This document shows positions 10,851 to 63,168 of a stretch of DNA of 64,000 bases, piece after piece. The number at the start of each line of letters is the position of its first letter. Within the stretch, counting starts at the first letter, position 1. Under the pieces are notes generated by a model. The model did no database searches, was not told where the DNA came from, and was given only the letters and a program-made list of their open reading frames with translations. A program made the position numbers and the translations under genes. Origin of the DNA: Candidatus Eiseniibacteriota bacterium. Lineage in GTDB: Bacteria > Eisenbacteria > RBG-16-71-46 > CAZAMP01. The stretch spans positions 4,224,001-4,288,000 of the forward strand of contig OZ245046.1 in the NCBI GenBank assembly GCA_965224245.1, in the 5' to 3' direction.

Positions 10851-11843
10851 TCAGCCGTCGACCGACGCCATCCCGCGCTCGTTGTAGCGATCGCCCTTCA
10901 CCTTCTCGGCCAGCGTGTTCAATCGTTCGACGTGTGACGCGGTCAGCGTCACACCCGCGGCGCCGAGGTTCGAGCGTAGGTTCGCCGCGCGCGTCGTGCC
11001 GGGGATGGTGACGATCTCGTCTCCGCGTCCCAGCACCCAGGCGATCGCCACCTGGGCCGGTGCGACGTCGAGCTCCCCGGCGACCGCCTCGATCTCCTCG
11101 ACCAGGGCCAGGTTGCTCTCGAGCGCCTCGCCCCGGAAGCGCGGGACCGCGCTCGCCCGGAAGTCGCGATCCGCCGGCGTCCAGTCGCGCCGGAACGCGC
11201 CGGTGAGCATGCCCCGGCCGAGCGGCGAGTACGCGACGAACGTCACGCCGAGCTCGCGGCACGCCGGGAGCACCTCGTCCTCGGCGCCGCGCGTGAAGAT
11301 CGAGTACTCCGACTGGAGCGCGGCGACGGGGTGAACGGCCGCGGCCTCGCGGAGCGTCGTGGCGGTGACCTCGGAGAGGCCGATCGCCTTCACCTTGCCC
11401 TCGGCGACGCAGCGCGCCATCACGGCCACCGTCTCCCCGATCGGCATCGAGCGATCGCGGCGGTGGAGGTACCAGAGATCCACGTGGTCGGTGCGGAGGT
11501 TCCGGAGCGACTGCTCGAGCGCGCGTCGCGCGTTGGCCTCCGACCCGTCGACCCGCCCGGTCGGAGCGCCCGTCTCGGGATCGAGGACGGGGCCGAACTT
11601 GGTCGCGATGAACACCCTTTCTCGCCGGTCGTGGAACGCGGCGCCGAGGAGCTTCTCGTTGTGACCGCCCCCGTAGAGCTCGGCGGTGTCGAAGTGGTCG
11701 ATGCCGGCGTCGATGGCGCCGTGGAGGAGCGCCACCGCGTCGTTCTCCTCCATCGCGGGGCCGTATGCGAACGACATCCCCATGCAGCCGAGGCCGATGG
11801 CGTTGACGGTCGGCCCCCCGGATCCGATGTGACGACGAATCAT
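10851..11843 (-). CDS. Aldo/keto reductase
   Basis: 'IGLGCMGMS', 'FDTAELYG', 'IATKFG', 'DLWYLHR', 'YSPLGRG', 'IPGT'; real start MIRRH at 11843 with GGAGGGG SD. Confidence 0.93.
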   Translation of the reverse strand: MIRRHIGSGGPTVNAIGLGCMGMSFAYGPAMEENDAVALLHGAIDAGIDHFDTAELYGGGHNEKLLGAAFHDRRERVFIATKFGPVLDPETGAPTGRVDGSEANARRALEQSLRNLRTDHVDLWYLHRRDRSMPIGETVAVMARCVAEGKVKAIGLSEVTATTLREAAAVHPVAALQSEYSIFTRGAEDEVLPACRELGVTFVAYSPLGRGMLTGAFRRDWTPADRDFRASAVPRFRGEALESNLALVEEIEAVAGELDVAPAQVAIAWVLGRGDEIVTIPGTTRAANLRSNLGAAGVTLTASHVERLNTLAEKVKGDRYNERGMASVDG

Positions 11844-11963
11844 GAAACCCCTCCCTGGATTGACGCCGGGGAGTCTACACGCCGTTCGGCGCCGGCGCGC
11901 GCCTCGCCGACGTCGGCGAGGCCGTCCTGCAGGAAATCTCATCGAATTCGACGAAACTTCCTG

Positions 11964-11977
11964 ACCGACCGGTCGGT
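11964..11977. promoter_or_regulatory. Perfect 14-bp palindrome ACCGACCGGTCGGT, probable TetR operator
   Basis: Located in the divergent intergenic region, about 100 bp upstream of the TetR-domain ATG. Confidence 0.7.
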
Positions 11978-12074
11978 AGGACACCCGCTGACCGGGCGTG
12001 ACCGCTCCCGGCCCGACAGCGACCGACCCGAACCGCCGCACCCGGCGGCGAGCCAGCCGGAGATCCAGAGACCC

Positions 12075-14204
12075 ATGAAGGACCGCATCGCCCGCGAGGC
12101 CATGAACCTCTTTGCCCGCAAGGGCTTCGCCGGGACGTCGATGCGCGAGATCGCCGAGGCGTGCGACGTCACGAAGGCGACTCTCTACCATCACTTCCCG
12201 GACAAGCACGCCCTCTACCAGACCGCCATCGGCCAGGCGCTGGACGAGATCTGCTCGCGCGTGGCCGCCGCGGGAGCGGACGCGCCCGACCCGCTGACGC
12301 GACTCCGCCGGCTCGTCCGCGCGCAGCTCGAGCTCTTCGTCACCGAGTCCACGCGGATTCGTGCGCTCTACCACAACCTCCTGATGCCGGACGCCGAGCC
12401 CCCGGACGTCGTGTCTCGACCGATGCCGATCCATGACGCGCTGATCGCCTGCGCCGAGGCGGGCTACCTCCCGCAAGAGCAGGTGTCCGACACGTACGCG
12501 CTCCTGGCCGGGGGCATCGAGTTCATCGGGGTGAACTGGCTTCTCGACCCGCGCTCGCCGAAGCCGACGGCGGAGCGCGGTGAGCGTCTCATTCGCGCCG
12601 CGCTTCCGGCGGTGGCGGAGACCGCGGCGGCCGCGACGTCGCCGACCCGCCGACCGGGGGCAGGAAAGCCCAACGCCACGAAGCCCCCCCGGCGTCATGC
12701 GATCGCGTGTCTGGTCGGCCTCGGATCGGCGCTCTCGATCGCGCTCGCGGAGGTCGCGAGCGCCGCGGAGGTCGTCGGCGCCGGTGACACGGCCGCCGGT
12801 GACACGGCCGCCGGCGACACGGTCGTGGCCATCCCCGGGAGCACGCAGGTGCTGACGCTCGCGACGTGCCTGGATCGCGCCCTCGAGGCCAACCCCGCGC
12901 TGGAGGCCGAGCGCGAGGGACGCGGCGAGCTTCACGGTCAGAAGTACCAGGCCCTGGCCATCGGGCTGCCCTCGCTGGACGTGGTCACGAACTGGTCCCG
13001 GAGCCGCGACCCGAGCTTTGCCCTGGACGCAACGTTCGGCGGTGGCGGCGACGGATTCCCATCGACCGGGGACGACACCGCCGACGCCGTGCTGGCCGCG
13101 CTCGGTGAGGGACTGGTCACCCCGGCCGCGGACGTCCCGGCCCAGACCTTCTGGCGGGCCAGCGCCGACCTGACCTGGGAGATCAATCCGTTCCTGGTTC
13201 GGAACGCGGTGGCGGCGGCCGGGATCGGCACCGACCGGCAGGACGCGATCATCGCCGACACGGAGAACCGGACCGCCGAGCGCGCGCTCGCCGCGTACTA
13301 CGACGTGCTGCGCGCGTCCGAGCAGCGCGCGGCTCTGGAGGCCGAGATGACCGCTCGCCGCGAGTTCCTCGACATCTCCCGGCGGCGGTTCCGGCTCGAC
13401 CTGGCCACGGGGCTCGACACGCTCCAGGCCGCGGTGTCGCTGGCGAACCTGGAGCCCGACTGGCGGCGTGCCCGGGAGACCGTCGTGAACGCCGGCTCGC
13501 GACTGAACGTCGTGATGGGACGCGATCCGATGACGCCGATCACCATCGAGTCCCGCGTCGACGTCGAGACCGACCCCATCGATCGCGACGCCGTCATCGC
13601 ACTGATCGACCGGCGCCCCGATCTCCGGGCGCTGCGCCTGCTCGGCGACATTCAGCGCAAGAACAGGGGCGCGCGCCGGGCGGAGTCGCGCCCGTACCTG
13701 TCGCTGTTCGGATCCTACGGCTACGTCGCGACCGCGTTCGACGATCTCGGGGATCCCGACCAGGACACCTGGCGCGCGTCCGTCTCGCTGAACGTGCCGA
13801 TCTTCGACGGGCTCCTGACGAAGGGCCGGGTCGACGAGACCGAGGCCACGATCCGGAGAATCGAGTTCCAGGTCGAGGACGCCGAGCGTCAGGCGCGCTA
13901 CGAGGTGCAGACGCTGGTCACCGAGGTCGAGGTCGCGCGCGCCAACCTGCGGGCGGCCGAGCTGAACCTGGCGCGCGCCGAGGAGGCGCTCTCGATGACC
14001 ACGCTTCGCTACGAGAACGGCAAGGCCGACTACCTGGCCGTTCTCAACGCGCAGGCCGACCGCTTCGTGGCCAGACGCAACCTGATCGATGCACGCCATT
14101 CGGTCGCGACGGAGACCGCTGCGCTCAAGCGCGCGCTGGGCCACGGACCCCTGACCCCGCTTCACGACATACTCGACGCGACCTCGCGATCCACGGAGGA
14201 CTGA
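12075..14204 (+). CDS. TetR/AcrR regulator domain fused in frame, via an internal signal-like helix, to a TolC-family outer-membrane efflux protein
   Basis: 'FARKGFAGTSMREIAEACDVTKATLYHHF' HTH; 'RRHAIACLVGLGSALSIALAEVASA'; TolC segments 'LTLATCLDRALEANP', 'SLNVPIFDG', 'RYENGKADYLAVLNAQ'. No stop between the parts. Confidence 0.8.
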   Translation: MKDRIAREAMNLFARKGFAGTSMREIAEACDVTKATLYHHFPDKHALYQTAIGQALDEICSRVAAAGADAPDPLTRLRRLVRAQLELFVTESTRIRALYHNLLMPDAEPPDVVSRPMPIHDALIACAEAGYLPQEQVSDTYALLAGGIEFIGVNWLLDPRSPKPTAERGERLIRAALPAVAETAAAATSPTRRPGAGKPNATKPPRRHAIACLVGLGSALSIALAEVASAAEVVGAGDTAAGDTAAGDTVVAIPGSTQVLTLATCLDRALEANPALEAEREGRGELHGQKYQALAIGLPSLDVVTNWSRSRDPSFALDATFGGGGDGFPSTGDDTADAVLAALGEGLVTPAADVPAQTFWRASADLTWEINPFLVRNAVAAAGIGTDRQDAIIADTENRTAERALAAYYDVLRASEQRAALEAEMTARREFLDISRRRFRLDLATGLDTLQAAVSLANLEPDWRRARETVVNAGSRLNVVMGRDPMTPITIESRVDVETDPIDRDAVIALIDRRPDLRALRLLGDIQRKNRGARRAESRPYLSLFGSYGYVATAFDDLGDPDQDTWRASVSLNVPIFDGLLTKGRVDETEATIRRIEFQVEDAERQARYEVQTLVTEVEVARANLRAAELNLARAEEALSMTTLRYENGKADYLAVLNAQADRFVARRNLIDARHSVATETAALKRALGHGPLTPLHDILDATSRSTED
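12779..12822 (+). repeat. Three tandem 15-bp units (GCCGGTGACACGGCC-like) encoding AGDTA at the N-terminus of the mature TolC part
   Basis: Protein reads AGDTAAGDTAAGDT. Confidence 0.7.
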
Positions 14205-24736: not shown

Positions 24737-24765
24737 AGGGGTGCTCGGCGGGGGGCGCTTGATAC
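24737..24765 (-). promoter_or_regulatory. Putative ECF promoter GTATCA-N17-ACCCCT driving the surface-protein/S8 operon
   Basis: Same spaced motif as three other intergenic sites in the module. Confidence 0.65.
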
Positions 24766-24806
24766 GGCGCCGGGCCAGAATCTCGCGAGGAAATCACGGT
24801 AGGGGC

Positions 24807-24835
24807 GTATCAACCCCCCCACGGATCCAACCCGT
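24807..24835 (+). promoter_or_regulatory. Putative ECF promoter GTATCA-N17-ACCCGT driving the GT/kinase/porin/ABC operon
   Basis: Same spaced motif; back-to-back with the 24737-24765 site. Confidence 0.65.
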
Positions 24836-24875
24836 TCTCCGCACGATGGGGCTCGGTGACGCAAGGGAGAGTCCG

Positions 24876-26030
24876 TTGGGTCGGCGGTACGTGATCTACT
24901 CACACGATGGCTTCGGGATGGGCAACATCCGGCGCAACCACGCGGTGGCGAAGCGGATCGTCGAGCGAGACGCCGACGCCAGCGTGCTGTGCCTGACCAG
25001 CTCCCGCTATCTCCATTTCCTGCCGCGACATCCCCGGATCGAGCTCGTGAAGCTCCCCGAGGTGCTGCGGGTGGGCCGCGGCGAGTACCGCTCTCGGACC
25101 GAGGGAGTGGCCATCCGTCCCCTGCTGGCCGCCCGGCGCGAGATCATCCGGGGAGCGATCAAGGGGTTCGATCCCGACGTGCTCCTGGTGGACAAGACGC
25201 CCGACGGCATCGCCGGCGAGCTCCGACCGCTCCTCGCGGGGCTGGATCGGGATCGCACGCGCGTCGCCCTGATTCTGCGTGACGTCCTGGACGAGCCGCG
25301 GTGGACCCGCGAGTTCTGGGCGCGCACGGGCCAGTACGACTGTCTCACCGAGTCCTACGACGCGGTCACCATTCTCGGAGATGACGCGCTCTTCGACACC
25401 GCCACCGCGTGCGGGCTCGATCGCGTGCCCGGCGTCGACGTCGCATACTGTGGGTACCTCGTCCGCGAGGCCCCCCACGACGACCCGGAAGCCCCCGAGC
25501 CCCTCGGCGACCGGTTTCTGATCTCGGTGGGTGGCGGCGAGGACGGCCTGGAGGTGATGCAAGCCTCCATCCAGGCCCTCTCCTCCATGGCGGCCGGCGA
25601 GCGTCCTGCGATCGACGTCGTGTTCGGGCCGTTCTTTCCGGCCGACGACCGCGATCGGTTGACGGCGACGTTCCAGCGACTGACCGATGCGCGGTGCACG
25701 AGCTTCGAGCGTCATCTCCGCGAGCGCATTCGCACGAGCCGCGGTGTGATCAGCATGGCCGGCTACAACACGGTGTGCGAGATCCTCGAATCGAGCGCCC
25801 CGGCCCTCGTCGTTCCCCGGCGCCACCCCAGCCGCGAGCAGGTCATCCGGGCCTCACGGATGACCGAGGTCGGCATCGTCGACTCGCCGGAGACCGCCGA
25901 GGCCACGCCGGAGCGCATTCGCGACTTCTTCACGTCGCCGAGACCACAGGACCGGAGCCGCTTTCGCCGCGGCGGCCACGACGGGATCGCCGGCCGAGCC
26001 GAGTCCCTCGCGACGCTGGCGCGGTGCTGA
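24876..26030 (+). CDS. GT-B glycosyltransferase (COG4671/GT28-like)
   Basis: 'YSHDGFGMGNIRR', 'PDVLLVDKTP.G', 'SVGGGEDG', 'SMAGYNTVCE', 'VPR....EQ..RA'. TTG start after AAGGGAG; alternative ATG at 24846. Confidence 0.85.
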   Translation: MGRRYVIYSHDGFGMGNIRRNHAVAKRIVERDADASVLCLTSSRYLHFLPRHPRIELVKLPEVLRVGRGEYRSRTEGVAIRPLLAARREIIRGAIKGFDPDVLLVDKTPDGIAGELRPLLAGLDRDRTRVALILRDVLDEPRWTREFWARTGQYDCLTESYDAVTILGDDALFDTATACGLDRVPGVDVAYCGYLVREAPHDDPEAPEPLGDRFLISVGGGEDGLEVMQASIQALSSMAAGERPAIDVVFGPFFPADDRDRLTATFQRLTDARCTSFERHLRERIRTSRGVISMAGYNTVCEILESSAPALVVPRRHPSREQVIRASRMTEVGIVDSPETAEATPERIRDFFTSPRPQDRSRFRRGGHDGIAGRAESLATLARC

Positions 26031-26033
26031 GCG

Positions 26034-28964
26034 ATGCGCGCGATCGACGGCGAGCCGACCGTGAGCGCCGATCTCCGATCCGGCGTCACCGCGCTGATGT
26101 CGGCGGTTCCCTCCGGTGCCCGGATTCTCCGGTTGGACGTCTCCTCGCGTGATCGTCTCAGCGCGCTATACGCCGACGAGGGCGGTGAGCTGGCCGGCGC
26201 GGCGCTCGCACGCGACTCCGGCCGCGTTCGCCTGTTCACGCCGGAAAACGATCCGAGGCTCTTTCCAGCTCCCGGCACGCTGGCGGACATCCTCGCCCGG
26301 GCCTGCGAGGCGGCCGCCGCCCCGGCGGACCAACCGATCGCGCGCGCGGTGGCCTACCGGCCCGGCAAGCGGCTCGTTCTCTCGCTCTCGACCGGCGACG
26401 ACCTCCTCGCGTTCGTGAAGATCCGTCGCGGCCCCGTGCTCACCGACCGCCTGGAGGCGGCATCGCGCAGCGGACTCTGGCCCACGCTTCTCGCGTCGTT
26501 CGGACACGACGCCCTGGCGGTCGAGGTCCGGCGGCCGGTGCCCGGCCGAGCGCTGACCGCCGACGTCACGCGTGGCGACCGCCGAGAACCGGTCACCGGT
26601 CCGCTGGCCGCGTCGCTGGCCGGGTTCGCCACGACCTCCCTCACCGGCCTCTCGATCCCCGAGAGGACCGGCGATCACGCCGCCGCCGAGACCCAACGCA
26701 TGCTGGACAAGGCGGTCCGTCTCGGCATGCTCGCCGACGGCGCCCTCGCCGAGGCGGTCGCGGATGCCGGTGCCCAGCTGACGACGGACGGTTCCGCCGA
26801 GCTGGTCGCCTCACACGGAGATCTTCACGACGGCCAGATCCACCTCGACTCCGCGGCCGTCTCGTGGATCGACGCCGACAGCATCGTGCGAGCGCCCGTC
26901 GAGGCCGACCTGGCGAACCTCGGAGCTCACATTCACCTGCGACGCGTCCAGTCGACGTGGTCGACGCCGTCTCCGTCGGGTCGGGCGGCCGGCCCCGTGA
27001 CCGCCGATCTGGCCTGGGAGCACGCGCTCCGCGACAGCATGCTGCGGTCGCTTCCGCCGCGGCTCGCCGCGTCCTTCTCGACCCGGCGATGGCACGCCTG
27101 GCGACGGCTGACGTTCGCCCGTCTCGCGGCCGTGTACGCGATGCGCCCGGTGTGGCGACCGATCACCGGTGCGCTGAGTGCGCTCGCGTCGGCGCCGCTC
27201 GCGCTCGTTCTCGTCCTCCTGGCGGCGCTCGGAGCGGCGGCCCCCGACGCGCCCGCCGCGTCGCCTCAGCCCCTGGCGCCTCACCATCTCCGGGACGGCG
27301 TCTGGGTCGAGGTGCAGGGCGAGTACCGCCCGGGCAAACGGTTCAAGGTCGAGGAGCTCGATCTGAAGCTCCCGCGCGGCGACGACCGGGTCGAGATCAG
27401 CGGAATCGTGACGGCGATCGACCCCGCGAGCGGCCGGGTGACCGTCATCGGCGTGCCGATCGAGACCGATGCGGAGACCACGCTGGACGGACTGGGCGGC
27501 CTCGAGACCCTCGCGATCGGCACGCTGATCAAGACCTCCGCGCTCCGCCGCTCGGGAGACGGCTTCCGCGCCGGGCACCTCGCCTCGCGCGACCCCGACG
27601 ACGGATGCGAGATCGAGGGCTACCTGACCGACCTGGAGGGCCGCGGCGGTCGCTGGACGTTCGAGGTCAACGGCATCCGCATGCGCCTGTCGTCGGACCC
27701 CGAGATCACGATCGAGCCCGAGGCGCTTCCGTACCTGGCCGCGGTGACCGAGAACGACCGGTCGCGACGCCGCTCCGACGACGACTGGCAGCCGGTCGGC
27801 CAGACGTTTCTCCATCCGTCGCTCTCGATCGGGGGGCGGATCTCCGGTCGTCTGACGTCGGAGAACGAACGCGACCTGAACGTCGACGTCGAGGACGAGC
27901 TCGTCGAGTCGAACCTCCATGCCCGCACGCACGTGCGATGGACGCCCAACCCCTGGTTCAGCGCCTATGCCGAGGTTCGCTGGACGGGTAGTCGCGGCCT
28001 GGACAACCCGTCGTCGATCCCCGACGTGGACCGGTCCGAGTACCAGTCGGGGCCCACGAACGTCCTGGTCCGTACGCGACGCTGGCCGCTCTCGGCCCGG
28101 CTGGGACGGATCGACGTGGAGGACGAGCGCGAGTGGTTCCACGACCAGAACCTCGACGGCATCCGTGTGCGCTGGACCGGCCGCGTGCTCGGCCTGGACG
28201 TCGGCCGCTATCGCACCGACATCACGCCGACCGACCGGAGCGACGACGAGCTCTACTCGATCGCCTCCATCGAGCTGTCGATGACCGACGTCGTACGTCC
28301 GAGCATCCACGTGATCACGCGACGCGATCGGCGCGCACCGGGAGACGAGCGCACGTGGACCGGGATCAGCGCTCCTCTGAGTCTCGGCGATCACGTCGAG
28401 GCGTGGGGGCACGGCGCGGTGGCGCGAGGGGATTACCGCGGCAAGAGCGTTCGCTCGTGGGCATCGGACGGCACGTTGCTGCTCCGGGTCAAACGCCCGC
28501 TTCGGGTGTCCATCTACGGCGGCTACGCGTTCGCCACCGGCGATGCGGACCGGGGCGACGGGATCGATCGCGAGTACCGTGACACGGATCTCGCCGACTA
28601 CTCCGACGCGATGGACGGGCTCAAGAGCTTCCGGTACTACGGCGAGTTCTCAGAGCCCGAGCTGTCGAACGTGCGCATCTGGACCGCCGGGGCCGGTACC
28701 TACCTGTTCTCGTGGCTCTCGCTGGACGCGGTGCTTCACGGGTACCGGCAAGACGAGTTCCGGGACCGATTCCGATCCGAGATCCCGATCCGCCCCACGG
28801 GCGACGACAAGGAGCTCGGCCGCGAGGTCAACGTCATCGCCGGCATCCGTGACGTCGGTCCGATCGACGTCAAGATGGTCTGGAGCTCGTTCGATCCAGG
28901 TCGGGCGTTCGAGACCCGCGACCGTTCGTCGGCCTTCGAGGTCCAGATCGAATGGCGGCGCTGA
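26034..28964 (+). CDS. Fusion of an APH/phosphotransferase-like domain, internal signal-like helix, DUF5666-like beta repeats and an alginate-export (AlgE-like) outer-membrane beta-barrel
   Basis: 'YRPGKR', 'HGDLHDGQ', 'DLANL'; hydrophobic 'APLALVLVLLAALGAAA'; 'VEISGIVTAID', 'EIEGYLTD'; barrel segments 'EREW..DQNLDGIR', 'YAFATGD', 'FRYYGE..EPELSN', C-terminal 'VQIEWRR'. Confidence 0.75.
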   Translation: MRAIDGEPTVSADLRSGVTALMSAVPSGARILRLDVSSRDRLSALYADEGGELAGAALARDSGRVRLFTPENDPRLFPAPGTLADILARACEAAAAPADQPIARAVAYRPGKRLVLSLSTGDDLLAFVKIRRGPVLTDRLEAASRSGLWPTLLASFGHDALAVEVRRPVPGRALTADVTRGDRREPVTGPLAASLAGFATTSLTGLSIPERTGDHAAAETQRMLDKAVRLGMLADGALAEAVADAGAQLTTDGSAELVASHGDLHDGQIHLDSAAVSWIDADSIVRAPVEADLANLGAHIHLRRVQSTWSTPSPSGRAAGPVTADLAWEHALRDSMLRSLPPRLAASFSTRRWHAWRRLTFARLAAVYAMRPVWRPITGALSALASAPLALVLVLLAALGAAAPDAPAASPQPLAPHHLRDGVWVEVQGEYRPGKRFKVEELDLKLPRGDDRVEISGIVTAIDPASGRVTVIGVPIETDAETTLDGLGGLETLAIGTLIKTSALRRSGDGFRAGHLASRDPDDGCEIEGYLTDLEGRGGRWTFEVNGIRMRLSSDPEITIEPEALPYLAAVTENDRSRRRSDDDWQPVGQTFLHPSLSIGGRISGRLTSENERDLNVDVEDELVESNLHARTHVRWTPNPWFSAYAEVRWTGSRGLDNPSSIPDVDRSEYQSGPTNVLVRTRRWPLSARLGRIDVEDEREWFHDQNLDGIRVRWTGRVLGLDVGRYRTDITPTDRSDDELYSIASIELSMTDVVRPSIHVITRRDRRAPGDERTWTGISAPLSLGDHVEAWGHGAVARGDYRGKSVRSWASDGTLLLRVKRPLRVSIYGGYAFATGDADRGDGIDREYRDTDLADYSDAMDGLKSFRYYGEFSEPELSNVRIWTAGAGTYLFSWLSLDAVLHGYRQDEFRDRFRSEIPIRPTGDDKELGREVNVIAGIRDVGPIDVKMVWSSFDPGRAFETRDRSSAFEVQIEWRR

Positions 28965-30601
28965 TGCGATCAACGACGACGAATGCCGATGGACGCGTGC
29001 TCCACCTCGTTCACAGCGGCGCCGACCTGAGCGAGGCGATCGCGCCGGAGACCGGGCTCACGGCGGCGGCTCCCGGCGCCCAGTGGCTGCTCGGTCCCGT
29101 GCTGCCCGACGCCGCGTTCGATCCACCGGATTGGGTCGAGTGGATCCGGGTTCCGGAGCTGGCCACCGAGGGCGCCGACTGGACGACGACCGTGTCGCGC
29201 CTGGTCGAGGCGCTTCGCCCCGCGCGCATCGTCGTCCACCGAGACGTGCACCGGGCGTCGCCGACGCTCGCCGCGACGCTTCATCAGATCTACGGAGACC
29301 GAATGACGATCATGCCGATGGAGGACCTCGCGCGGCCGCTTCGCGTGGGATACGTGCTGAAGAAGTTCCCGCGTTACTCCGAGACCTTCATCCTGCGCGA
29401 GGTCCTTGCCCTGGAGCGGCTCGGGGTGGACGTTCACGTCCTGTCGCTGCACCTGCCCCGGGACGGCCGCTTTCACGGATCGCTCTCCGAGCTCCGCCGG
29501 TCGGTTCACTATCTGGAGGACCGCAGCGCACCGAAGGCGCTCGGCGCCGTCCTGCCGCTTCTCCCCGAAGATCCCGGCGGACGCCGGCGCGTGACCGACC
29601 TGTTCTGGGAGACGCTCGATCGCGGGGATCCTCGCCTCCTCGGGTACCTCGCACGCGGCATCGAGATCGCCGCGCTCGTCCGGGAACGGGGGATCACGCA
29701 CCTGCACGCGCACTTCGCCACGTCGGCCTGCGAGGTCGCTCGCGTCGCGGCCGCGATCGCCGGTGTCACGTACAGCTTCACCGCACACGCGAAGGACATC
29801 TACGCCGACGACGTGGATCGCCGGGGCCTCGATCTGAAGCTCCGCGACGCCGCGTTCGCCGTGACCGTGTGCGATGCCAACGTCGACTATCTCCGGGCGA
29901 TGCACGCGTCCGCCAACGGCACCGTGCGCCGGCTCTTCAACGGAATACGCCTCGATCGGGAGACCGACGCGCGTCCCGCCGGCGAGCACCGCGACGGATC
30001 GGCGCCCGCCGTCGACGTGCTCGCGGTGGGACGCTTCGTGGAGAAGAAGGGCTTCTCTATGCTGCTCGACTCGCTGGCCGAGGTGCGCCGTCGCGGCGTT
30101 CCGTTCTCGTGCCGGATCCTCGGCGACGGCGAGCTGTTCGAGGACGTGCGGGCCCACCGGGATCGCCTCGGGCTCGGAGACGTCGTGGACCTGCCGGGCT
30201 CCGCGTCGTCCGAGCAGATCCGGGCCCAGATGGCGACGGCCGGCTTTCTCGTGTGTCCGTCGATCGTGGCCGGGAACGGCGATCAGGACGCGCTGCCCAC
30301 GGTGCTCCTGGAGGCGATGGCCGCTGGGCTCGCGACGATCGGCACGCGCGTCGGCGGCATCGGCGAGATCCTGAACGGCGGGCGAGCAGGCCGGCTGATC
30401 GATCCCGACCCCGCGGCGCTGACCGACGCCATCTGCGAGCTCCTGACCCGACCGGAGCGGCGCGCGCACTTCGCCTCGGAGGGACGCGCACACGCCGCGG
30501 AGAACTTCGACGTCGATCGAAACGTGGCACGCCTCGCGGAGTGGTTCCGCGGGGCCGGAACGACGGTCCCGTCGGCCGTCCAGGAGGCTCGGTCCTCATG
30601 A
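28964..30601 (+). CDS. GT4 glycosyltransferase (WcaL-like) with a ~125-aa N-terminal extension
   Basis: 'YVLKKFPRYSETFILRE', 'HLHAHFA', 'FTAHAKDI', 'VGRFVEKKG', 'DALPTVLLEAMA'; ATG overlaps the upstream TGA. Confidence 0.88.
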   Translation: MRSTTTNADGRVLHLVHSGADLSEAIAPETGLTAAAPGAQWLLGPVLPDAAFDPPDWVEWIRVPELATEGADWTTTVSRLVEALRPARIVVHRDVHRASPTLAATLHQIYGDRMTIMPMEDLARPLRVGYVLKKFPRYSETFILREVLALERLGVDVHVLSLHLPRDGRFHGSLSELRRSVHYLEDRSAPKALGAVLPLLPEDPGGRRRVTDLFWETLDRGDPRLLGYLARGIEIAALVRERGITHLHAHFATSACEVARVAAAIAGVTYSFTAHAKDIYADDVDRRGLDLKLRDAAFAVTVCDANVDYLRAMHASANGTVRRLFNGIRLDRETDARPAGEHRDGSAPAVDVLAVGRFVEKKGFSMLLDSLAEVRRRGVPFSCRILGDGELFEDVRAHRDRLGLGDVVDLPGSASSEQIRAQMATAGFLVCPSIVAGNGDQDALPTVLLEAMAAGLATIGTRVGGIGEILNGGRAGRLIDPDPAALTDAICELLTRPERRAHFASEGRAHAAENFDVDRNVARLAEWFRGAGTTVPSAVQEARSS

Positions 30602-31830
30602 CGAAGCCCCACGTCGCCTACGTCGTCGCGGATCCCGGCATCGACTGGCGCAGCGCGAAGGGCGCCGCGGTCCACGTCCGCGAGATGGTCCGCGCCATGT
30701 GCGACATCGGATGTCGCGTCTCGGTCGTCACCACGCGAGGCGTCGCGTCCATCGGCGAGGACGAGCCCGAGTTCGCCCGTCTCGAAGCGTGTCGCGCCGT
30801 CGACCGCCACTTCGGGGCGGCTCCCCGTGAGGAACGCCCCGGCGCGTTGCGTGAGATCCGCACGCTGGCCAAGATGCCGGTCGTCGCCGACGCCGTTCTG
30901 GCGCTCGACGCCGCGGATCGCATCGACGTGGTCTACGAACGCTACTCGCTGTGGAGCGACGTCGGGGCCCGGGTCTCCGGCGAGCTCGGCGTGCCGCTGG
31001 TGGTGGAGATGAACGCGCCCCTCATCGACGAGCAGACGTCCTATCGATCGCTGGCCCTGACCGACGTCGCCGAGCACGTGCTCGGTCGCACGATGTCGAG
31101 CGCCGAGCGGATCGTCGTGGTCAGCCGGGCGCTCGAGCACTACCTCGCGGCGCGGGGCATCGATCGCGAGCGCGTTCGGATCCTGCCGAACACCGCGGAG
31201 CGAGAGCGATTCTTCCGATCCCCTCACCGCGCGCCGGCACCGGGCGAGCCGTTCACGGTCGGCTTCCTGGGAAGCCTCAAGCCCTGGCACGGCGTCGAGC
31301 AGTTCCTGGACGTGTTCGCCACCGTGCATGCGGCACACCCGAACTGCCGGCTGGAGATCGTGGGGGACAGCCGCCATCGCGCGTCGCTCGAAGAGTGGGT
31401 GCGCGCGAACGAGCTCGGGGGCGCGGTCCGCTTCCTCGGACACGTCGAGCACGAACGCGTTCCCGAGATCCTGGAACGGTGGGATCTGGCGGTCGCGCCC
31501 TACCCCGATCTCCCCGGATTCTACTTCTCGCCCCTGAAGCTGGCCGAGGCGCTGGCCGCCGGACGTCCGGTGATGGCCGCCGGCATCGGCGACATTCCCG
31601 AGATGCTCGGGAACGGGGACCACGGCGTGCTCGTTCCCCCGAGCGACTGGCAGCGCTGGACGCAAGCGCTCACGGCTCTCGTGACCGATCCGAGCAAGCT
31701 GTCTCCGCTCGCCGACGCGGCAGAACGACATTCGCGCGACTGGAGCTGGCGAACTCACGCGGCCGCGAGCCTCGAGGGCCTCGTCATGAACGGCGCGCCG
31801 CCACGCGAGCTGTCTCGTGCCGCGGATTGA
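30598..31830 (+). CDS. GT4 glycosyltransferase
   Basis: 'KGAAVHVRE', 'VYERYSLW', 'EMNAPL', 'GFLGSLKPWHG', 'FYFSPLKLAE'; ATGA overlap. Confidence 0.9.
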   Translation: MTKPHVAYVVADPGIDWRSAKGAAVHVREMVRAMCDIGCRVSVVTTRGVASIGEDEPEFARLEACRAVDRHFGAAPREERPGALREIRTLAKMPVVADAVLALDAADRIDVVYERYSLWSDVGARVSGELGVPLVVEMNAPLIDEQTSYRSLALTDVAEHVLGRTMSSAERIVVVSRALEHYLAARGIDRERVRILPNTAERERFFRSPHRAPAPGEPFTVGFLGSLKPWHGVEQFLDVFATVHAAHPNCRLEIVGDSRHRASLEEWVRANELGGAVRFLGHVEHERVPEILERWDLAVAPYPDLPGFYFSPLKLAEALAAGRPVMAAGIGDIPEMLGNGDHGVLVPPSDWQRWTQALTALVTDPSKLSPLADAAERHSRDWSWRTHAAASLEGLVMNGAPPRELSRAAD

Positions 31831-33613
31831 CGTCCGGACCGCCGCGCTGTGGCGGCGGGAGCAGCTCTCGCGGGCGTGGCACGTCATCCGCACGTTCGCG
31901 CCGTACGCGAAGCGGCACCGCGCCCTGGCCCTGGGGGCGTTCGCCAGCATCGTCGCCGGCGCCGGAATCCGCGTACTTCAGCCCCTGCCGCTGAAGTACC
32001 TGTTCGACGACGTACTGATCCCGTCGGCCGACACGATCGCCCGGTCCGAGCCGGTCGCGTTTCCAGCGCGGACGATCGCACTCATCTGCGTGGCGATTCT
32101 CGCGGCCGGCGTGGCGGCGGGGTTTGCGTTCTACGGCGAGCGCGTGCTCGCCGCCCGCGCGGGCCAGGCCATCGTGTCGTCGATCCGACGGAGCCTGTTC
32201 GGTCACGTGCTCCGGCTACCGCTGAGCGACTTTCGCACGCTCAAGCGCGGGGAGATCCTGAACCTCCTGGGACGCGACGTGGAGCACCTCCGCGAGCTCC
32301 TGGTCAACGTCATCCTCGACGTCGCCGGGTCGGTCGTGCACGTGGTGACGATGCTGACGATCATGTTCCTGCTGAACCCGCGGCTGAGCCTGGTCGCCCT
32401 GGCCATACTGCCCCTGGTCGGGCTGGCGTCGGTCGAGGTCTCGTTCACGATGCGCGACGTGGCGCGCAAGCAGCGGCGGCGCGAGAGCCTCCTTCTCAGC
32501 TCGGCCCAGAACGTGCTCGACGCGATGCCGATCGTGAAGATCTTCGGGCGTGAGCGCTCGGAGCGGCGGCGCTTCGCGCGCGACAACCGGGCCACGCGTC
32601 GAGCGGGGGTCAAGCTGAAGCGGCTCGAGGCCGCCCTCGTGCGCCGCGTCGAGGTGCTGCTGGCGCTCGCCACGTGCGTGTTCATCTTCGTCGGCGTCCG
32701 TGAGGTGTGGCTGGGCGAGCTGAGCGCCGGCGGCCTGTTGCTCTTCGCGTCGTATCTGAAGTCCTTCCAGAAGCCCATCCGCCGGCTCACCCGCAGTGCG
32801 GCCAAGCTCTCGCGCGCGACCACGTGCGGCGAGCGCGTCGCCGAAGCCTTCGCACGTCCGATCGAGCTCGATACCGAGGGTCCCGAGGTCGAGGAGTGCG
32901 CGCGCTCGCTGTCGGGCGAGGTGACGTTCGAGGACGTTTCGCTTCGCTACCCCGACGGTACCGTCGCGCTCCGGGACGTGTCCTTTCACGTCCCGGCCGG
33001 GTCGGTGGTCGCGCTGATCGGTCCGAGCGGCGCGGGAAAGTCCACGCTCGTGTCCCTGATCACGCGCCTGATCGATCCCACCTCCGGCATCGTTCGATAC
33101 GACGGACAGGACGGCACGAGGATCCCGCGCGGCGTCGTGCGCCGCCACGTGACCGCCGTGTTCCAGGAGAGCTACCTCTTCGACGGCACCATCGCCGAGA
33201 ACCTGCGCTACGGCCGCGAGGACGCCGACGACGCGGATCTCCGCGAGCACGCCGTTCGGGCCAATGCGTGGTCGTTCGTGGAGGCACGAGGCGACGTGCT
33301 CGAGGCGCCCGTCGGGGACTTCGGCCGGCAGTTCTCCGGGGGTGAGCGCCAGCGCCTCACGGTTGCACGGGCACTCCTGCGCAACGCGCCGATCGTGCTC
33401 CTCGACGAGCCGACCCGGGGACTCGACGACGTCTCCGCGGCCGCGGTCCGTCGGGCGCTCGTGGACTACGGTCGGGGACGCACGGTATTCTGGGCCACCC
33501 ACGACCCCGAGGAGGTCTCTCACGCCGACCTCACGCTCGTCGTGACCGAGGGTCGAGCCCGTCTGCACCGGGGTGCCCCTCAGGCGGCGCTCGGGGAGGT
33601 ACCGGCATCGTGA
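31817..33613 (+). CDS. ABC exporter with fused TMD and NBD (MsbA/Sav1866-like)
   Basis: About 6 TM segments, then GPSGAGKST, FSGGERQR, LLDEPT. Confidence 0.92.
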   Translation: MPRIDVRTAALWRREQLSRAWHVIRTFAPYAKRHRALALGAFASIVAGAGIRVLQPLPLKYLFDDVLIPSADTIARSEPVAFPARTIALICVAILAAGVAAGFAFYGERVLAARAGQAIVSSIRRSLFGHVLRLPLSDFRTLKRGEILNLLGRDVEHLRELLVNVILDVAGSVVHVVTMLTIMFLLNPRLSLVALAILPLVGLASVEVSFTMRDVARKQRRRESLLLSSAQNVLDAMPIVKIFGRERSERRRFARDNRATRRAGVKLKRLEAALVRRVEVLLALATCVFIFVGVREVWLGELSAGGLLLFASYLKSFQKPIRRLTRSAAKLSRATTCGERVAEAFARPIELDTEGPEVEECARSLSGEVTFEDVSLRYPDGTVALRDVSFHVPAGSVVALIGPSGAGKSTLVSLITRLIDPTSGIVRYDGQDGTRIPRGVVRRHVTAVFQESYLFDGTIAENLRYGREDADDADLREHAVRANAWSFVEARGDVLEAPVGDFGRQFSGGERQRLTVARALLRNAPIVLLDEPTRGLDDVSAAAVRRALVDYGRGRTVFWATHDPEEVSHADLTLVVTEGRARLHRGAPQAALGEVPAS

Positions 33614-34917
33614 CGACGTCCGTGCCCCGGTTCATTCCGTCTCGCTGGCTCGGCGAGACTCCGGATGCACCGCGCGATCCGGATCTGCCCGAGGCCGACC
33701 TCCTGACCGATCGCGCCACGCTGGCGAGCTGGCTCTCCGCGTCGTGGAACGTCCCGGGCGCCGTCGATCCGTCGGAGATCGTGTACGAATCGGTTCGCTA
33801 CAAGCCCGGCGTGCGGCTGACCGCGGTGACCCGGCTGGGCGCCCTGCGAGTCACCTGGCGGGCGTTCCCCACAGGCGACGCCGAGGTTGCGTGGCAGAAG
33901 CTGATCGACGGCGGCGTTCGCGGACAGGATCGCCTGCGCGCGGGATCCATCATCGGGCTCCGCTTCCCCCAGGACCACGTGCTGAGCGGGCTGACGCGTC
34001 TCGTCCCCGGCCGGCTCGGCGCGACGTACGTCCGCCGCCTGATCCCCGGCCTGACCGACGAGCGCACGCGCCTCCGCTCCTACAGCTTCGACCCCACGCT
34101 GATCCGCTACAAGCCGGAGCGACACGCCGTGTTCCATCTGACGTTCACGGTGCGCGACGCCGGTGACGGACACAAGGAGCGCCGCCGGGCGATCGCGCGC
34201 GTGCTCCCGCCCGGCTCGCCCCCGCCGCCGGCGCCGGAGACGTCGTTCACCCCGCGGCCCCTGGCCTGGGACGCCGACAACGGCGTGTCGATCGAGTCGT
34301 TCGTGCCGGGCCGCACGCTGGCCGCCGTGCTCGCGGGGGGCGGTGACGACGAGCTCGCGCCGGATGCCGGCACGGTGATCGCGCGCGATGACGCCCTCAC
34401 CATGGTCGGGTCGGCGTTGGCCGCCCTTCACGCGCTCGGCGCGGTCGGGCGACGGATCCTCGAACCGCCGAGGGCACACGTCCCGCTCTGGGAACCGGCA
34501 ATCCGAGACGACGTCTCGCGCGTGATCGCCGCGCTCGCGGCAGCCGCCTCGCCGGTGGCGTCGCCGACCACCGTCCACGGAGACCTGCATCCCGGTCAGG
34601 TCCTGTTCGACGGCGAGAGGTGGTGGCTCGTCGATCTGGACAAACGAGGCCGGGCGGCGCCCGAGCGCGATCTCGGAGACCTGATCGCCGCGCTCCTCGA
34701 GGCCGACGCCGGCGCGAGCCTCCAGGAGCTCCGCGCGCCGCTCGTCGCGGGCTACCGGCGGGCGGGGGGTGGCACGCTCTCGGAGTCGGCGCTACGCACG
34801 TGGACCGCGGCCGCCGTCGTGCGCCGGGCCGAGGCGCCGCTACGCAACCTCCATCCGGACCGCCACGCGATCGCCCGGCGCCTGCTCGCGCTGGCGGAGG
34901 ACATCGCCGGTACCTGA
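33610..34917 (+). CDS. APH/choline-kinase-like phosphotransferase
   Basis: Two 'RYKP' motifs, 'VHGDLHPGQV', 'LVDLD', 'ERDLGD'. Confidence 0.8.
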   Translation: MTTSVPRFIPSRWLGETPDAPRDPDLPEADLLTDRATLASWLSASWNVPGAVDPSEIVYESVRYKPGVRLTAVTRLGALRVTWRAFPTGDAEVAWQKLIDGGVRGQDRLRAGSIIGLRFPQDHVLSGLTRLVPGRLGATYVRRLIPGLTDERTRLRSYSFDPTLIRYKPERHAVFHLTFTVRDAGDGHKERRRAIARVLPPGSPPPPAPETSFTPRPLAWDADNGVSIESFVPGRTLAAVLAGGGDDELAPDAGTVIARDDALTMVGSALAALHALGAVGRRILEPPRAHVPLWEPAIRDDVSRVIAALAAAASPVASPTTVHGDLHPGQVLFDGERWWLVDLDKRGRAAPERDLGDLIAALLEADAGASLQELRAPLVAGYRRAGGGTLSESALRTWTAAAVVRRAEAPLRNLHPDRHAIARRLLALAEDIAGT

Positions 34918-62427: not shown

Positions 62428-63168
62428 ATGACGAAGGTCGACCCCGACAGTCCTCAATTCGCTGAAAACAAGGGACTTGCGCGAACGACCGGACGCGCGA
62501 AACGATTCCTCCGGGAGTGGCTGGTCCCGTTCGCGCTGGTTCTGGCCGTGGTGACGCCGCTCCGGGCGGCGCTGGCCGACTGGTACCACGTGCCGTCGGG
62601 CTCGATGCGGCCGACCATCGTCGAGGGCGATCGGATCTTCGTGGCCAACTGCGCGTTCGGGCTCCGAATCCCGATGACTCGAACCTGGATCGCCCGCTGG
62701 GCGGTGCCCGAGCGCGGCGACGTCGTCACCCTGGCCTCTCCCGAGGACGGCACCCGGCTCGTCAAGCGCGTCATCGGGGTGCCCGGCGATCGCATCGCGC
62801 TCAGGAACAACCGCCTGATCGTGAACGGACACGCCATCGCCTACGTTCCCGAGGGCGAGTCGATCGACTCCCTCCCCGACGGTCGCGACGTCACCGTTCG
62901 CATCGCGACCGAGGAGCTGCCCCACCACGAGCACCGCGTGACGTTCACGCCGGGCTACGGCGCGTTCCGGTCGTTCGGTCCCGTCGTGGTGCCCGACGGT
63001 CAGTACTTCGTGATGGGCGACAACCGCGACCAGAGCTTCGACTCGCGCGGCTTCGGCTTCGTGCCCCTGGAGAACATCTTCGGGCGGTCCAGCCACGTCG
63101 TGCTCTCCGGCGACCCCGATCGGTTCTATCTGCCGCGCATCGATCGGTTCCTGCACCGGCTCGACTGA
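62428..63168 (+). CDS. lepB: Signal peptidase I
   Basis: 'VPSGSMRPT', 'LVKRVIGVPGD', 'MGDNRDQSFDSR'; GGAGG SD. Confidence 0.95.
   Translation: MTKVDPDSPQFAENKGLARTTGRAKRFLREWLVPFALVLAVVTPLRAALADWYHVPSGSMRPTIVEGDRIFVANCAFGLRIPMTRTWIARWAVPERGDVVTLASPEDGTRLVKRVIGVPGDRIALRNNRLIVNGHAIAYVPEGESIDSLPDGRDVTVRIATEELPHHEHRVTFTPGYGAFRSFGPVVVPDGQYFVMGDNRDQSFDSRGFGFVPLENIFGRSSHVVLSGDPDRFYLPRIDRFLHRLD

Follow-up and report, generated by a model that had tools for sequence, protein, structure and literature searches.

A single gene in the window analysed here, that is, the whole 64,000-nucleotide stretch of an Eisenbacteria genome, encodes in one open reading frame (ORF) of 976 aa a kinase domain, an internal segment with the features of a signal peptide, DUF5666-type beta domains and an AlgE-like outer-membrane barrel. 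The architecture is conserved in the closest relatives with complete N termini, similar enzyme-barrel fusions recur elsewhere among homologues of the barrel, and the signal-peptide features have been retained in them. The explanation that we prefer, to which we give a probability of about 0.5, is that the product would be a precursor that enters the membrane by means of the internal signal peptide and is then processed by signal peptidase, leaving the kinase tethered to the membrane and setting the exporter free for the outer membrane.

Results

The fused reading frame

The gene and its parts are as follows.

26034–28964, + strand: the complete fusion gene (976 aa), from the kinase through the internal signal segment and the beta domains to the barrel
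26034–27140, + strand: K2, predicted cytoplasmic APH / glucosamine-kinase-fold domain, residues 1–369
26814–26837, + strand: HGDLHDGQ catalytic-loop motif, residues 261–268
26868–26879, + strand: IDAD, residues 279–282, with the presumed metal-binding Asp (D280)
27141–27143, + strand: ATG of Met370, candidate internal start
27159–27245, + strand: internal signal-peptide-like or membrane segment, residues 376–404
27246–27266, + strand: c-region DAPAASP, residues 405–411
27303–27713, + strand: DUF5666-type beta domains, predicted periplasmic, residues 424–560
27804–28964, + strand: predicted AlgE-fold outer-membrane beta-barrel, residues 591–976, ending in EWRR

The ORF was found exactly where the original prediction had placed it, and it is real. 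GC3 within its frame is 0.75–0.95 from the start to the end of the ORF, and this uniformity across 26034–28964 argues that there is no frame change. Logan contigs from three runs of one sample, among which the assembly's own source may be included, cover 26700–27600 with no differences and no gaps, and a 151-nt contig from a second sample lies over 27060–27210, again without a difference. The original prediction had named two findings that would speak against a genuine fusion, namely a stop or indel at the junction and separate genes in all close relatives. The Logan contigs contain no such stop or indel in 26700–27600, and the closest relatives with complete N termini (P0003, P0004 and P0002, with 41–45% identity at the protein level) are fused in the same way in three of three cases.

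The kinase domain

Sequence searches with residues 1–369 returned no significant match in Pfam, NCBIfam or the PDB, the best being an MTR-kinase model at E 0.035, and against Pfam, PF01636 (APH) included, nothing was found even at E 10. Because sequence-only searches gave nothing significant, K2 was identified by structure prediction. The AlphaFold2 (AF2) model of residues 1–369 has a pLDDT of 86.8 and a pTM of 0.84, and its best Foldseek matches are the glucosamine kinase 6HWL (E 3e-12) and the APH(3′) structure 1ND4 (E 1.3e-9), both of which have, like K2, HGD in the catalytic loop and an invariant Asp after it, at a sequence identity of 15–21%. The orthologous kinase domains of P0003 and P0004 score above the Pfam APH cut-off (30.4 and 34.1 bits versus 23.2), as does the homologue P0151 for PF01636. 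The assignment of an APH-like kinase, like those of the DUF5666 domains and the AlgE-like barrel described below, holds, and the HGDLH motif noted in the original prediction is present within HGDLHDGQ.

H261, D263, D280 and D292 are invariant in 13/13 aligned kinase domains. The model shows a kinase fold of two lobes, with a catalytic loop of the HxD type and a metal-binding Asp, which we take to be D280 from its place in the APH fold; the roles of these residues are assigned by position. Five positions past the catalytic Asp, where the usual APH residue is Asn, K2 has Gln and its group-B relatives have Asn. Taken together, the N-terminal domain is probably a sugar-kinase-like enzyme, predicted to be an ATP-dependent phosphotransferase. 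We know of no described glucosamine kinase or APH member that has a signal peptide behind it.

The internal segment

Residues 376–410 of the 976-aa ORF consist of an uncharged 29-residue segment (376–404) followed by DAPAAS, and AF2 predicts a helix at residues 372–401 with a pLDDT of about 56. The segment and its flanks comprise a positive n-region, a hydrophobic core and a small-x-small c-region. The flank on the N side carries a net charge of +7 and that on the C side one of −2, a bias that fits an N-in/C-out orientation. Textbook bacterial signal peptides are N-terminal; this segment lies 375 residues from the ORF start, unless Met370 is the start. The ATG at 27141 is 6 residues ahead of the uncharged stretch, which is an ideal spacing for an independent start, and the preceding 20 nt contain no GGAG-like motif, in agreement with the earlier remark that this ATG lacks a clear Shine-Dalgarno (SD) sequence.

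Within the c-region, P0002, P0003 and P0004 have a small-x-small motif in the equivalent position, and we infer A406-P407-A408 / A409 to be the candidate signal peptidase I site. Such motifs are retained in all four members of the clade to which these proteins belong (P0001, P0003, P0004 and P0002). In the fused forms of lipoprotein-type branches (P0013, P0039, P0042, P0100, P0099, P0136, L061 and L087), a Cys stands right behind the hydrophobic core in 8/8, with varying flanking residues. A caveat on the cleavage reading is that small-x-small, Ala-rich motifs may easily arise at 70% GC. The uncharged stretch is 14–29 residues long in 10 fused forms (leaving out P0136, the lipobox-like segment of which was read separately), and has a median of 18 residues (range 11–34) in 72 stand-alone homologues.

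The beta domains and the barrel

DUF5666 (PF18914) was matched at residues 457–509 with 30.7 bits (cut-off 27), and the middle part scanned alone gave 34.2 bits in two stretches; AF2 beta strands extend over residues 424–560. Disordered linkers are predicted at residues 402–411 and 570–580, and about 190 residues separate the helix from the barrel. Alginate_exp (PF13372) was matched at residues 597–967 with 57.6 bits against a cut-off of 25.2, and the AF2 pLDDT is mostly >90 over residues 591–975. The barrel model matches AlgE (3RBH) with a Foldseek E of 1.8e-21 and a TM of 0.79 on the target, the fold being assigned by superposition; a search of the ESM Atlas gave no usable match. Omp85/BamA-type proteins, signal peptidase I and LspA are all encoded in the genome.

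The C-terminal 385 residues therefore match AlgE of Pseudomonas aeruginosa by both Pfam and fold, and both genes are located in glycan-synthesis loci. Unlike AlgE, the fused gene has no adjoining alginate genes, carries DUF5666 domains ahead of the barrel, has its signal peptide internally, behind a 369-residue cytoplasmic enzyme, and ends in EWRR and not in an aromatic residue. The barrel may thus work like an AlgE-type pore, yet outside any alginate system, with a predicted role in export.

The gene neighbourhood

The following genes flank the fusion.

24741–26030, + strand: GT28_C-like glycosyltransferase
28952–30601, + strand: GT4 glycosyltransferase
30598–31830, + strand: second GT4 glycosyltransferase, the start of which overlaps the stop of the preceding gene
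31790–33613, + strand: ABC exporter (ABC_membrane and ABC_tran)
33346–34917, + strand: K1, a second APH-family kinase-like gene by Pfam APH (open frame, approximate start)

An alginate context (a synthase or an AlgK-type partner) was sought among these neighbours and was absent; the genes are instead GT28_C-like, GT4 (two copies), ABC exporter and APH-like. The TGA of the GT28_C-like gene (26028–26030) is in the frame of the fused gene, one codon before its ATG, and in P0002 a GT28_C domain is found within the same chain as the kinase/barrel fusion. K1 has its best match in the first kinase domain of P0002 (E 4e-10). The same 64,000-nt window also contains a second such fusion, of TetR to a TolC-like protein.

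Fused and split relatives

In the barrel tree, the clade of the fused gene (support 100) has four members with known N termini, and all four are fused; across these four representatives, with 38–47% identity, the kinase catalytic residues and the barrel motifs are intact. Searches of genome and metagenome contigs (for P0002, metagenome contigs) for the DNA loci of the closest fused relatives gave no relative. Class-wide, the locus was matched in 6/206 genomes (E ≤ 1e-10), with no match in the same-family genome G001.

Three class-level relatives (G014, G017 and G039) have two genes. Their K2 stop and barrel start codons overlap in the sequence ATGA, and the barrel has an ordinary signal peptide at its N terminus, aligning to residues ~386–393 of the query; GGAG precedes the ATGA junction in two of them and is absent from the fused gene. 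More widely, a K2-like gene lies upstream, in the same orientation, in 68 of the 80 named loci, and 65 of these 68 are split. The kinase and barrel genes are adjacent in 61/65 split loci; 30 of those 61 have an in-frame NTGA start that overlaps with the stop codon of K2. Split K1-K2-barrel operons, for example those of Saltatorellus ferox Poly30 (L082) and Exilibacterium tricleocarpae (L079), have the same families and gene order, with ABC exporter and GT4 neighbours as at the fused locus; unlike in the fused gene, their kinase and barrel are separate, often with overlapping stop and start, and the barrel signal peptide is N-terminal. Comparison of these loci points to two genes, a kinase and a barrel, as the ancestral state.

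Fusion has not been confined to this clade. A cytoplasmic enzyme stands ahead of an internal hydrophobic segment in 11 of the best 150 representatives, the query included, and the enzymes fused in this way are APH kinases, GT28_C, GT4 and Methyltransf_11. As the 'fused' label changes at least five times on the barrel tree, cytoplasmic enzymes appear to have been joined ahead of the barrel's signal peptide on at least five separate occasions. In two of the fused forms there is no ATG, GTG or TTG upstream of the hydrophobic core within 25 (L002) or 37 (L087) codons, and for this reason their barrels would be made only as part of the fusion. L066, considered as a further kinase-barrel fusion, was rejected; its kinase is frame-broken and the hydrophobic segment is absent.

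Discussion

The targeting and cleavage of the chain, the fate of both products and the substrate of the kinase are put forward here as we infer them. In the precursor that we propose, K2 would fold in the cytoplasm as the N-terminal part, and the internal hydrophobic segment, on emerging, would serve as a signal peptide, the role that it would have had in the ancestral stand-alone barrel gene. The segment would enter Sec in the N-in/C-out orientation, so that the DUF5666 domains, and with them the barrel region, would reach the periplasm, and signal peptidase I would cut past the small-x-small site, most likely at A406-P407-A408 / A409. The released product of ~568 residues would be assembled by BAM as an AlgE-like exporter in the outer membrane, and the kinase, of ~408 residues, would stay attached to the inner membrane through the used signal peptide, beside the glycosyltransferases and the ABC exporter of the same locus. 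Such a fusion could have arisen from a translationally coupled kinase/barrel pair by the in-frame loss of a stop. Tethering seems not to be needed for kinase function, because stand-alone K2 proteins have no membrane anchor, and the fusion may confer no advantage and simply be tolerated.

A related case is FbcH (cytochrome b/c1) of Bradyrhizobium japonicum, a precursor that gives rise to two proteins by a cut at an internal sequence resembling a signal peptide. The fused gene has a single ORF and an internal signal-like segment, and its conserved cleavage motifs may point to two mature products. The two mature FbcH proteins both remain in the inner membrane, the first of them being polytopic; in the present chain, a soluble enzyme comes first and an outer-membrane barrel second.

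The chain might instead remain uncut, which we consider unlikely. The segment would then anchor it permanently in the inner membrane, the DUF5666 domains would span the periplasm, and a single polypeptide would connect the cytoplasmic kinase physically to the barrel in the outer membrane. Twenty-nine uncharged residues, predicted by AF2 to be helical, suffice for a transmembrane helix, and because a stretch of this length is at the long end of the stand-alone range, it may be a stable, uncut anchor; by our estimate, the ~190 residues that follow, including two disordered linkers, could cross the periplasm if extended. However, the lipobox Cys (8/8) and the small-x-small motif (4/4) are retained, features superfluous to an anchor, the corresponding stretches of P0004, P0099, P0002 and P0039 have just 14–19 residues, which is short for a stable anchor, and the homologues encoded on their own are barrels of the usual secreted or lipoprotein type. 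For PelB, a bridge of this kind has been suggested, in which 22 apolar N-terminal residues without a cleavage site, a periplasmic scaffold and a C-terminal export barrel form one chain touching both membranes (PMC12141448). The likeness is partial: PelB carries no enzyme domain in the cytoplasm, its helix stands at the N terminus and lacks a site for the peptidase, and a TPR scaffold of more than 20 nm is described for it (PMC12141448), whereas the fused gene retains a cleavage-type motif and its periplasmic part of ~190 residues is far shorter than that scaffold. The further idea that an uncut chain acts as a trans-envelope link, coupling a cytoplasmic glycan step to the export pore, would extend to the GT4 and methyltransferase fusions, which would then be built alike; we hold it to be doubtful, slightly more so than the bridge itself.

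Translation from the internal ATG at 27141 was one of two mechanisms offered by the original prediction; the barrel would then come mainly from Met370, and the fusion chain, left over from the loss of the kinase stop, would be a minor product or go to waste. From Met370, the region reads as a textbook signal peptide, with MRPVWR as the n-region, a hydrophobic core and an Ala-rich c-region. P0004 has a Met 5 residues ahead of the core, P0003, P0039 and P0100 have one within ~25, and L061 has GTG and TTG at 10 and 5 codons upstream, respectively. The absence of an SD sequence at Met370 does not discriminate, because the ORF's own start at 26034 is also without an SD-like motif upstream. Against this reading, Met370 lies within the conserved C-terminal VYxxRPxWR of the kinase and is replaced by Cys in P0004 and Ala in P0002, for which reasons it was rejected as the ancestral start codon of the barrel. 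A Met within 25 residues upstream is lacking in six of the 11 fused representatives, no canonical start codon occurs in L002 and L087 over the stretches given above, and the GGAG found at the junction in two of three split relatives is missing here. In addition, because there is no stop codon, each ribosome making the kinase also makes the fusion chain, the fate of which would then need explaining. Overall, internal initiation appears improbable, and the comparative evidence favours the other mechanism of that prediction, the cut polyprotein. It is very improbable that the stop loss was a recent lesion or an assembly artefact giving a non-functional product. The patchiness of the locus in the class, its absence from G001 and the degraded look of L066 would suit such an accident, but four fused representatives with intact catalytic residues and barrel motifs, the uniform GC3 and the concordant contigs from three runs and a second sample speak against it; conservation appears to have largely refuted it already.

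The arrangement of enzyme, signal segment and pore in one chain is probably barely documented in bacteria. In the literature that we searched for bacterial internal signal peptides and polyproteins and for DUF5666, nothing was found on a kinase-signal-barrel architecture, nor was there a description of a DUF5666-AlgE-like glycan export system. Judging from the relatives collected here, the kinase-kinase-barrel glycan export locus seems to be widespread and uncharacterised, with members in Planctomycetota, Gemmatimonadota, Eisenbacteria, Zixibacteria and Proteobacteria. Two cultured organisms, Saltatorellus ferox Poly30 and Exilibacterium tricleocarpae, carry the locus in its split form.

In summary, selection would repeatedly have kept, or tolerated, signal peptides behind 300–1000 residues of folded cytoplasmic enzyme, with the downstream protein nonetheless destined for the outer membrane. 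If they are cut, these chains would be natural bacterial polyproteins that supply, at a fixed 1:1 ratio, a tethered biosynthetic enzyme and its export pore, and they would provide test cases for the handling of internal signals by Sec, signal peptidase and BAM; if they are uncut, each would be a one-protein bridge across the envelope. In either case, the fusions may serve as 'Rosetta stone' links between the enzymes of the locus, namely the APH-fold kinase pair, the GT4 and GT28-like transferases, the methyltransferase and the ABC exporter, and the DUF5666-AlgE-like pore.

Architecture of the fused gene

The original prediction described a single ORF in which an APH-like kinase, a hydrophobic segment, DUF5666 and an AlgE-like barrel are joined, and Pfam together with AlphaFold2 models bears this description out throughout.

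26034-28964 (+), fused gene, one unbroken ORF of 976 aa
residues 457-509 (+), DUF5666, over the curated Pfam cut-off
residues 597-967 (+), Alginate_exp, over the curated Pfam cut-off

Residues 1-369 (the kinase domain K2) matched nothing significantly in Pfam, NCBIfam or the PDB sequences. The AlphaFold2 model of this part, resting on an alignment of 13 rows, was confident (pLDDT 86.8, pTM 0.84), and its top structural matches were glucosamine kinase 6HWL (E 3e-12), followed by APH(3') enzymes. HGDLHDGQ (261-268) and IDAD (279-282) occupy the positions of the catalytic loop and the metal-binding Asp of the matched fold, and H261, D263, D280 and D292 are invariant across all 13 aligned kinase domains. 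Between the kinase and the beta domains lies an uncharged stretch of 29 residues (376-404), followed by DAPAASP, with a net charge of +7 over the 30 residues on its N side and -2 over the 30 on its C side. In the full-length model (pLDDT 87.4), a disordered linker separates a low-confidence helix (372-401) from the beta domains (424-560), and another linker leads on to the barrel (591-975), which superposed on AlgE (3RBH) with an E of 1.8e-21 and a TM of 0.79 on target. The barrel would work as AlgE does, but it is not part of an alginate system. The last residue of outer-membrane barrels is usually aromatic; it is F or Y in 130 of the 150 best representatives, unlike the EWRR that ends the barrel here (28950-28961) and in all five members of the fused clade.

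Conservation and origin of the join

GC3 in the ORF frame stays at 0.75-0.95 along the whole gene, codons 340-420 included. Read support at the junction had been proposed as a check; Logan contigs from three separately assembled runs of one sample cover 26700-27600 with 0 differences and 0 gaps, and a second sample yielded an identical 151-nt contig (27060-27210), although these runs may contain the assembly's own source and serve as an assembly check rather than fully independent support. Conservation in relatives is the stronger argument for a real join. Searching 1.84 billion representative proteins gave 962 matches at E <= 1e-3, the four best after the query being P0003 (992 aa, 45% identity) and P0004 (970 aa, 42%), both aligned over nearly all of the query, P0002 (1549 aa, 41%), which is longer at its N-terminal side by a GT28_C-like domain and another kinase domain, and P0005, a 519-aa fragment whose first residue falls inside the beta domains. 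These four and the query form one clade (support 100) in a FastTree barrel tree, built without bootstraps from the 132 of 150 listed proteins with >= 330 aligned barrel residues (18 rows, P0013 and P0039 among them, were omitted), and all four members with a known N-terminus are fused.

The closest relatives (P0002, P0003 and P0004) are fused; farther ones are split. With this genome counted, a match turned up in 5 of the 41 relatives sampled; across the class, again with this genome counted, the figure was 6 of 206 genomes. In three relatives (G014, G017 and G039), a K1 gene (the second kinase), a K2 gene and a separate barrel gene follow one another, the K2 stop and barrel ATG overlap as ATGA, and the barrel product carries an ordinary N-terminal signal peptide that aligns to query residues ~386-393. 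A same-strand upstream K2-like gene was found at 68 of 80 named loci (L011-L090; mostly Planctomycetota, also Gemmatimonadota, Eisenbacteria, Zixibacteria and Proteobacteria); it is split from the barrel in 65 of the 68 and adjacent in 61 of these, and in 30 of the adjacent pairs the K2 stop overlaps an in-frame start (15 ATGA, 13 GTGA, 2 TTGA). Because split relatives show adjacent genes with overlapping stop and start, the fused gene descends from a translationally coupled kinase/barrel pair, and a slight in-frame change where the two meet is all it takes to join them.

Recurrence of fusion

A cytoplasmic enzyme precedes an internal hydrophobic segment in 11 of the 150 best representatives, query counted. 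Pfam was run on eight of the 11; P0039 and P0042, which were not among them, are alignable to the kinase.

Pfam domains of fused representatives other than the query
P0003, P0004: APH, DUF5666, Alginate_exp
P0002: GT28_C, Alginate_exp
P0013, P0100, P0136: two APH stretches, Alginate_exp
P0099: GT4, DUF5666, Alginate_exp
P0135: Methyltransf_11, DUF5666, Alginate_exp

On the barrel tree the fused label changes at least 5 times, and as few changes arose in 0 of 500 shuffles. At the DNA level, the methyltransferase fusion recurs in a sampled relative (G019, locus L002) and a named Eisenbacteria record (L011), and the double-kinase fusion in two Planctomycetota records (L061 and L087). A non-functional accident seems highly improbable as an explanation of the fused gene.

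Other joins were seen in related loci. K1 lies in a single open frame with K2 in L021:1610-4438, L053:1874-4489 and L078:1-4170, and in the same operon type L079:2222-4513 (+) joins GT4 to a K2-like APH domain in a 764-aa open frame. In a Gemmatimonadota contig (L066:1218-3865), the K2-like gene shifts frame midway and its C-terminal remnant continues into the beta domains and barrel with no hydrophobic segment, possibly as a pseudogene or assembly error.

The window also holds a second fusion:

12075-14201 (+), TetR_N regulator, signal-like segment and TolC-like OEP in one frame without a stop

It sits within the open frame 10980-14204, with its hydrophobic core at about nt 12696. A sister-genus genome (G001) matches all of it (residues 1-709), free of stops, at 51% identity, and G027 has TetR and OEP as separate genes. 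A GTG lies 28 codons before the core here and 11 codons before it in G001, so internal initiation is possible in this fusion.

Proposed processing of the fused chain

Of the two mechanisms originally put forward, a polyprotein cut by signal peptidase I is favoured, with a probability of about 0.5, on the strength of kept cleavage-type motifs. The internal signal peptide would place the chain in the membrane N-in/C-out, and signal peptidase I would cut near A408/A409, freeing a barrel protein of ~568 residues for BAM, while the inner membrane would retain the kinase (~408 residues) as a tethered protein. FbcH is a precedent for a bacterial precursor split at an internal signal-like sequence. 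The uncharged stretch spans 14-29 residues in 10 fused proteins, the query's 29 being the longest, and has a median of 18 (range 11-34) in 72 stand-alone homologues, chosen for 540-640 aa, a first residue M, V or L and hydrophobicity >= 1.8. The four clade members with a known N-terminus keep small-x-small motifs 3-8 residues past the core (APA/A, AAA/N or DAA/A, ARA/A, ADA/S). The genome has 12 matches to the Omp85 family, 4 to signal peptidase I and 2 to LspA. One signal peptidase I match lies inside the window:

62512-63099 (+), signal peptidase I (Peptidase_S26)

An uncut chain bridging the envelope is an unlikely alternative for which PelB offers a comparable proposal (PMC12141448). It has to be weighed against the lipoprotein branches, whose stand-alone members include P0011, P0036, P0112 and P0114: all eight fused forms (P0013, P0039, P0042, P0100, P0099, P0136, L061 and L087) have a Cys right after the core amid variable flanking residues. 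An anchor that only holds the chain in the membrane could do without this Cys, and its being kept is the strongest indication at hand that fused chains still undergo lipoprotein or signal-peptidase processing.

Internal initiation was the second mechanism; synthesis of the barrel mainly from Met370 (ATG 27141) is, like the uncut chain, improbable and ranks below cleavage. Its product would begin with an ideal signal peptide. As had been noted, no SD-like motif precedes this ATG, and one is likewise absent at the ORF's own start (26034). Met370 lies within the conserved C-terminal stretch of the kinase; at this position P0004 has Cys and P0002 has Ala. Counting back 25 residues from the core, 5 of 11 fused representatives have a Met and the other 6 have none; no ATG, GTG or TTG precedes the core for 25 codons in L002 or 37 in L087, and L061 has GTG at -10 and TTG at -5. 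As there is no stop codon, every ribosome finishing the kinase goes on into the barrel. Starts at an internal codon can raise the number of barrel chains, but the cell still has to deal with the fusion chain.

Locus and proposed role

The locus order is GT28_C-like transferase, K2-barrel, GT4, GT4, ABC exporter and K1:

33346-34917 (+), K1, open frame of the second APH-family kinase-like gene

The TGA of the GT28_C-like gene is in frame with the fused gene, one codon (GCG) before ATG 26034 (26028-26036). In P0002 a GT28_C-like domain is inside the same 1549-aa chain. The second GT4 ATG overlaps the first GT4 stop (30598-30601), ATGA-type, as at split kinase/barrel junctions. Upstream, on the opposite strand, are secreted CarboxypepD_reg-repeat proteins and an S8 peptidase. 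Among cultured organisms, the barrel of Saltatorellus ferox Poly30 (L082) comes after an ABC exporter and K2, and that of Exilibacterium tricleocarpae R142 (L079) after K1, a GT4 and a GT4-K2 open frame. The kinase-kinase-barrel order is conserved across phyla, with a K2-like gene upstream at 68 of the 80 named loci, and the literature searched gave no published function for it.

All parts come from known families; what we did not find described in the literature searched is a single gene that runs from a soluble cytoplasmic enzyme through an internal signal peptide to an outer-membrane barrel. The nearest structures of the kinase are sugar kinases. The most economical guess is that it would phosphorylate a sugar during the synthesis of a glycan or glycolipid, which would leave the cell by way of the ABC exporter and AlgE-like pore. 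Through fusion, the soluble upstream partner would become a tail-anchored enzyme.
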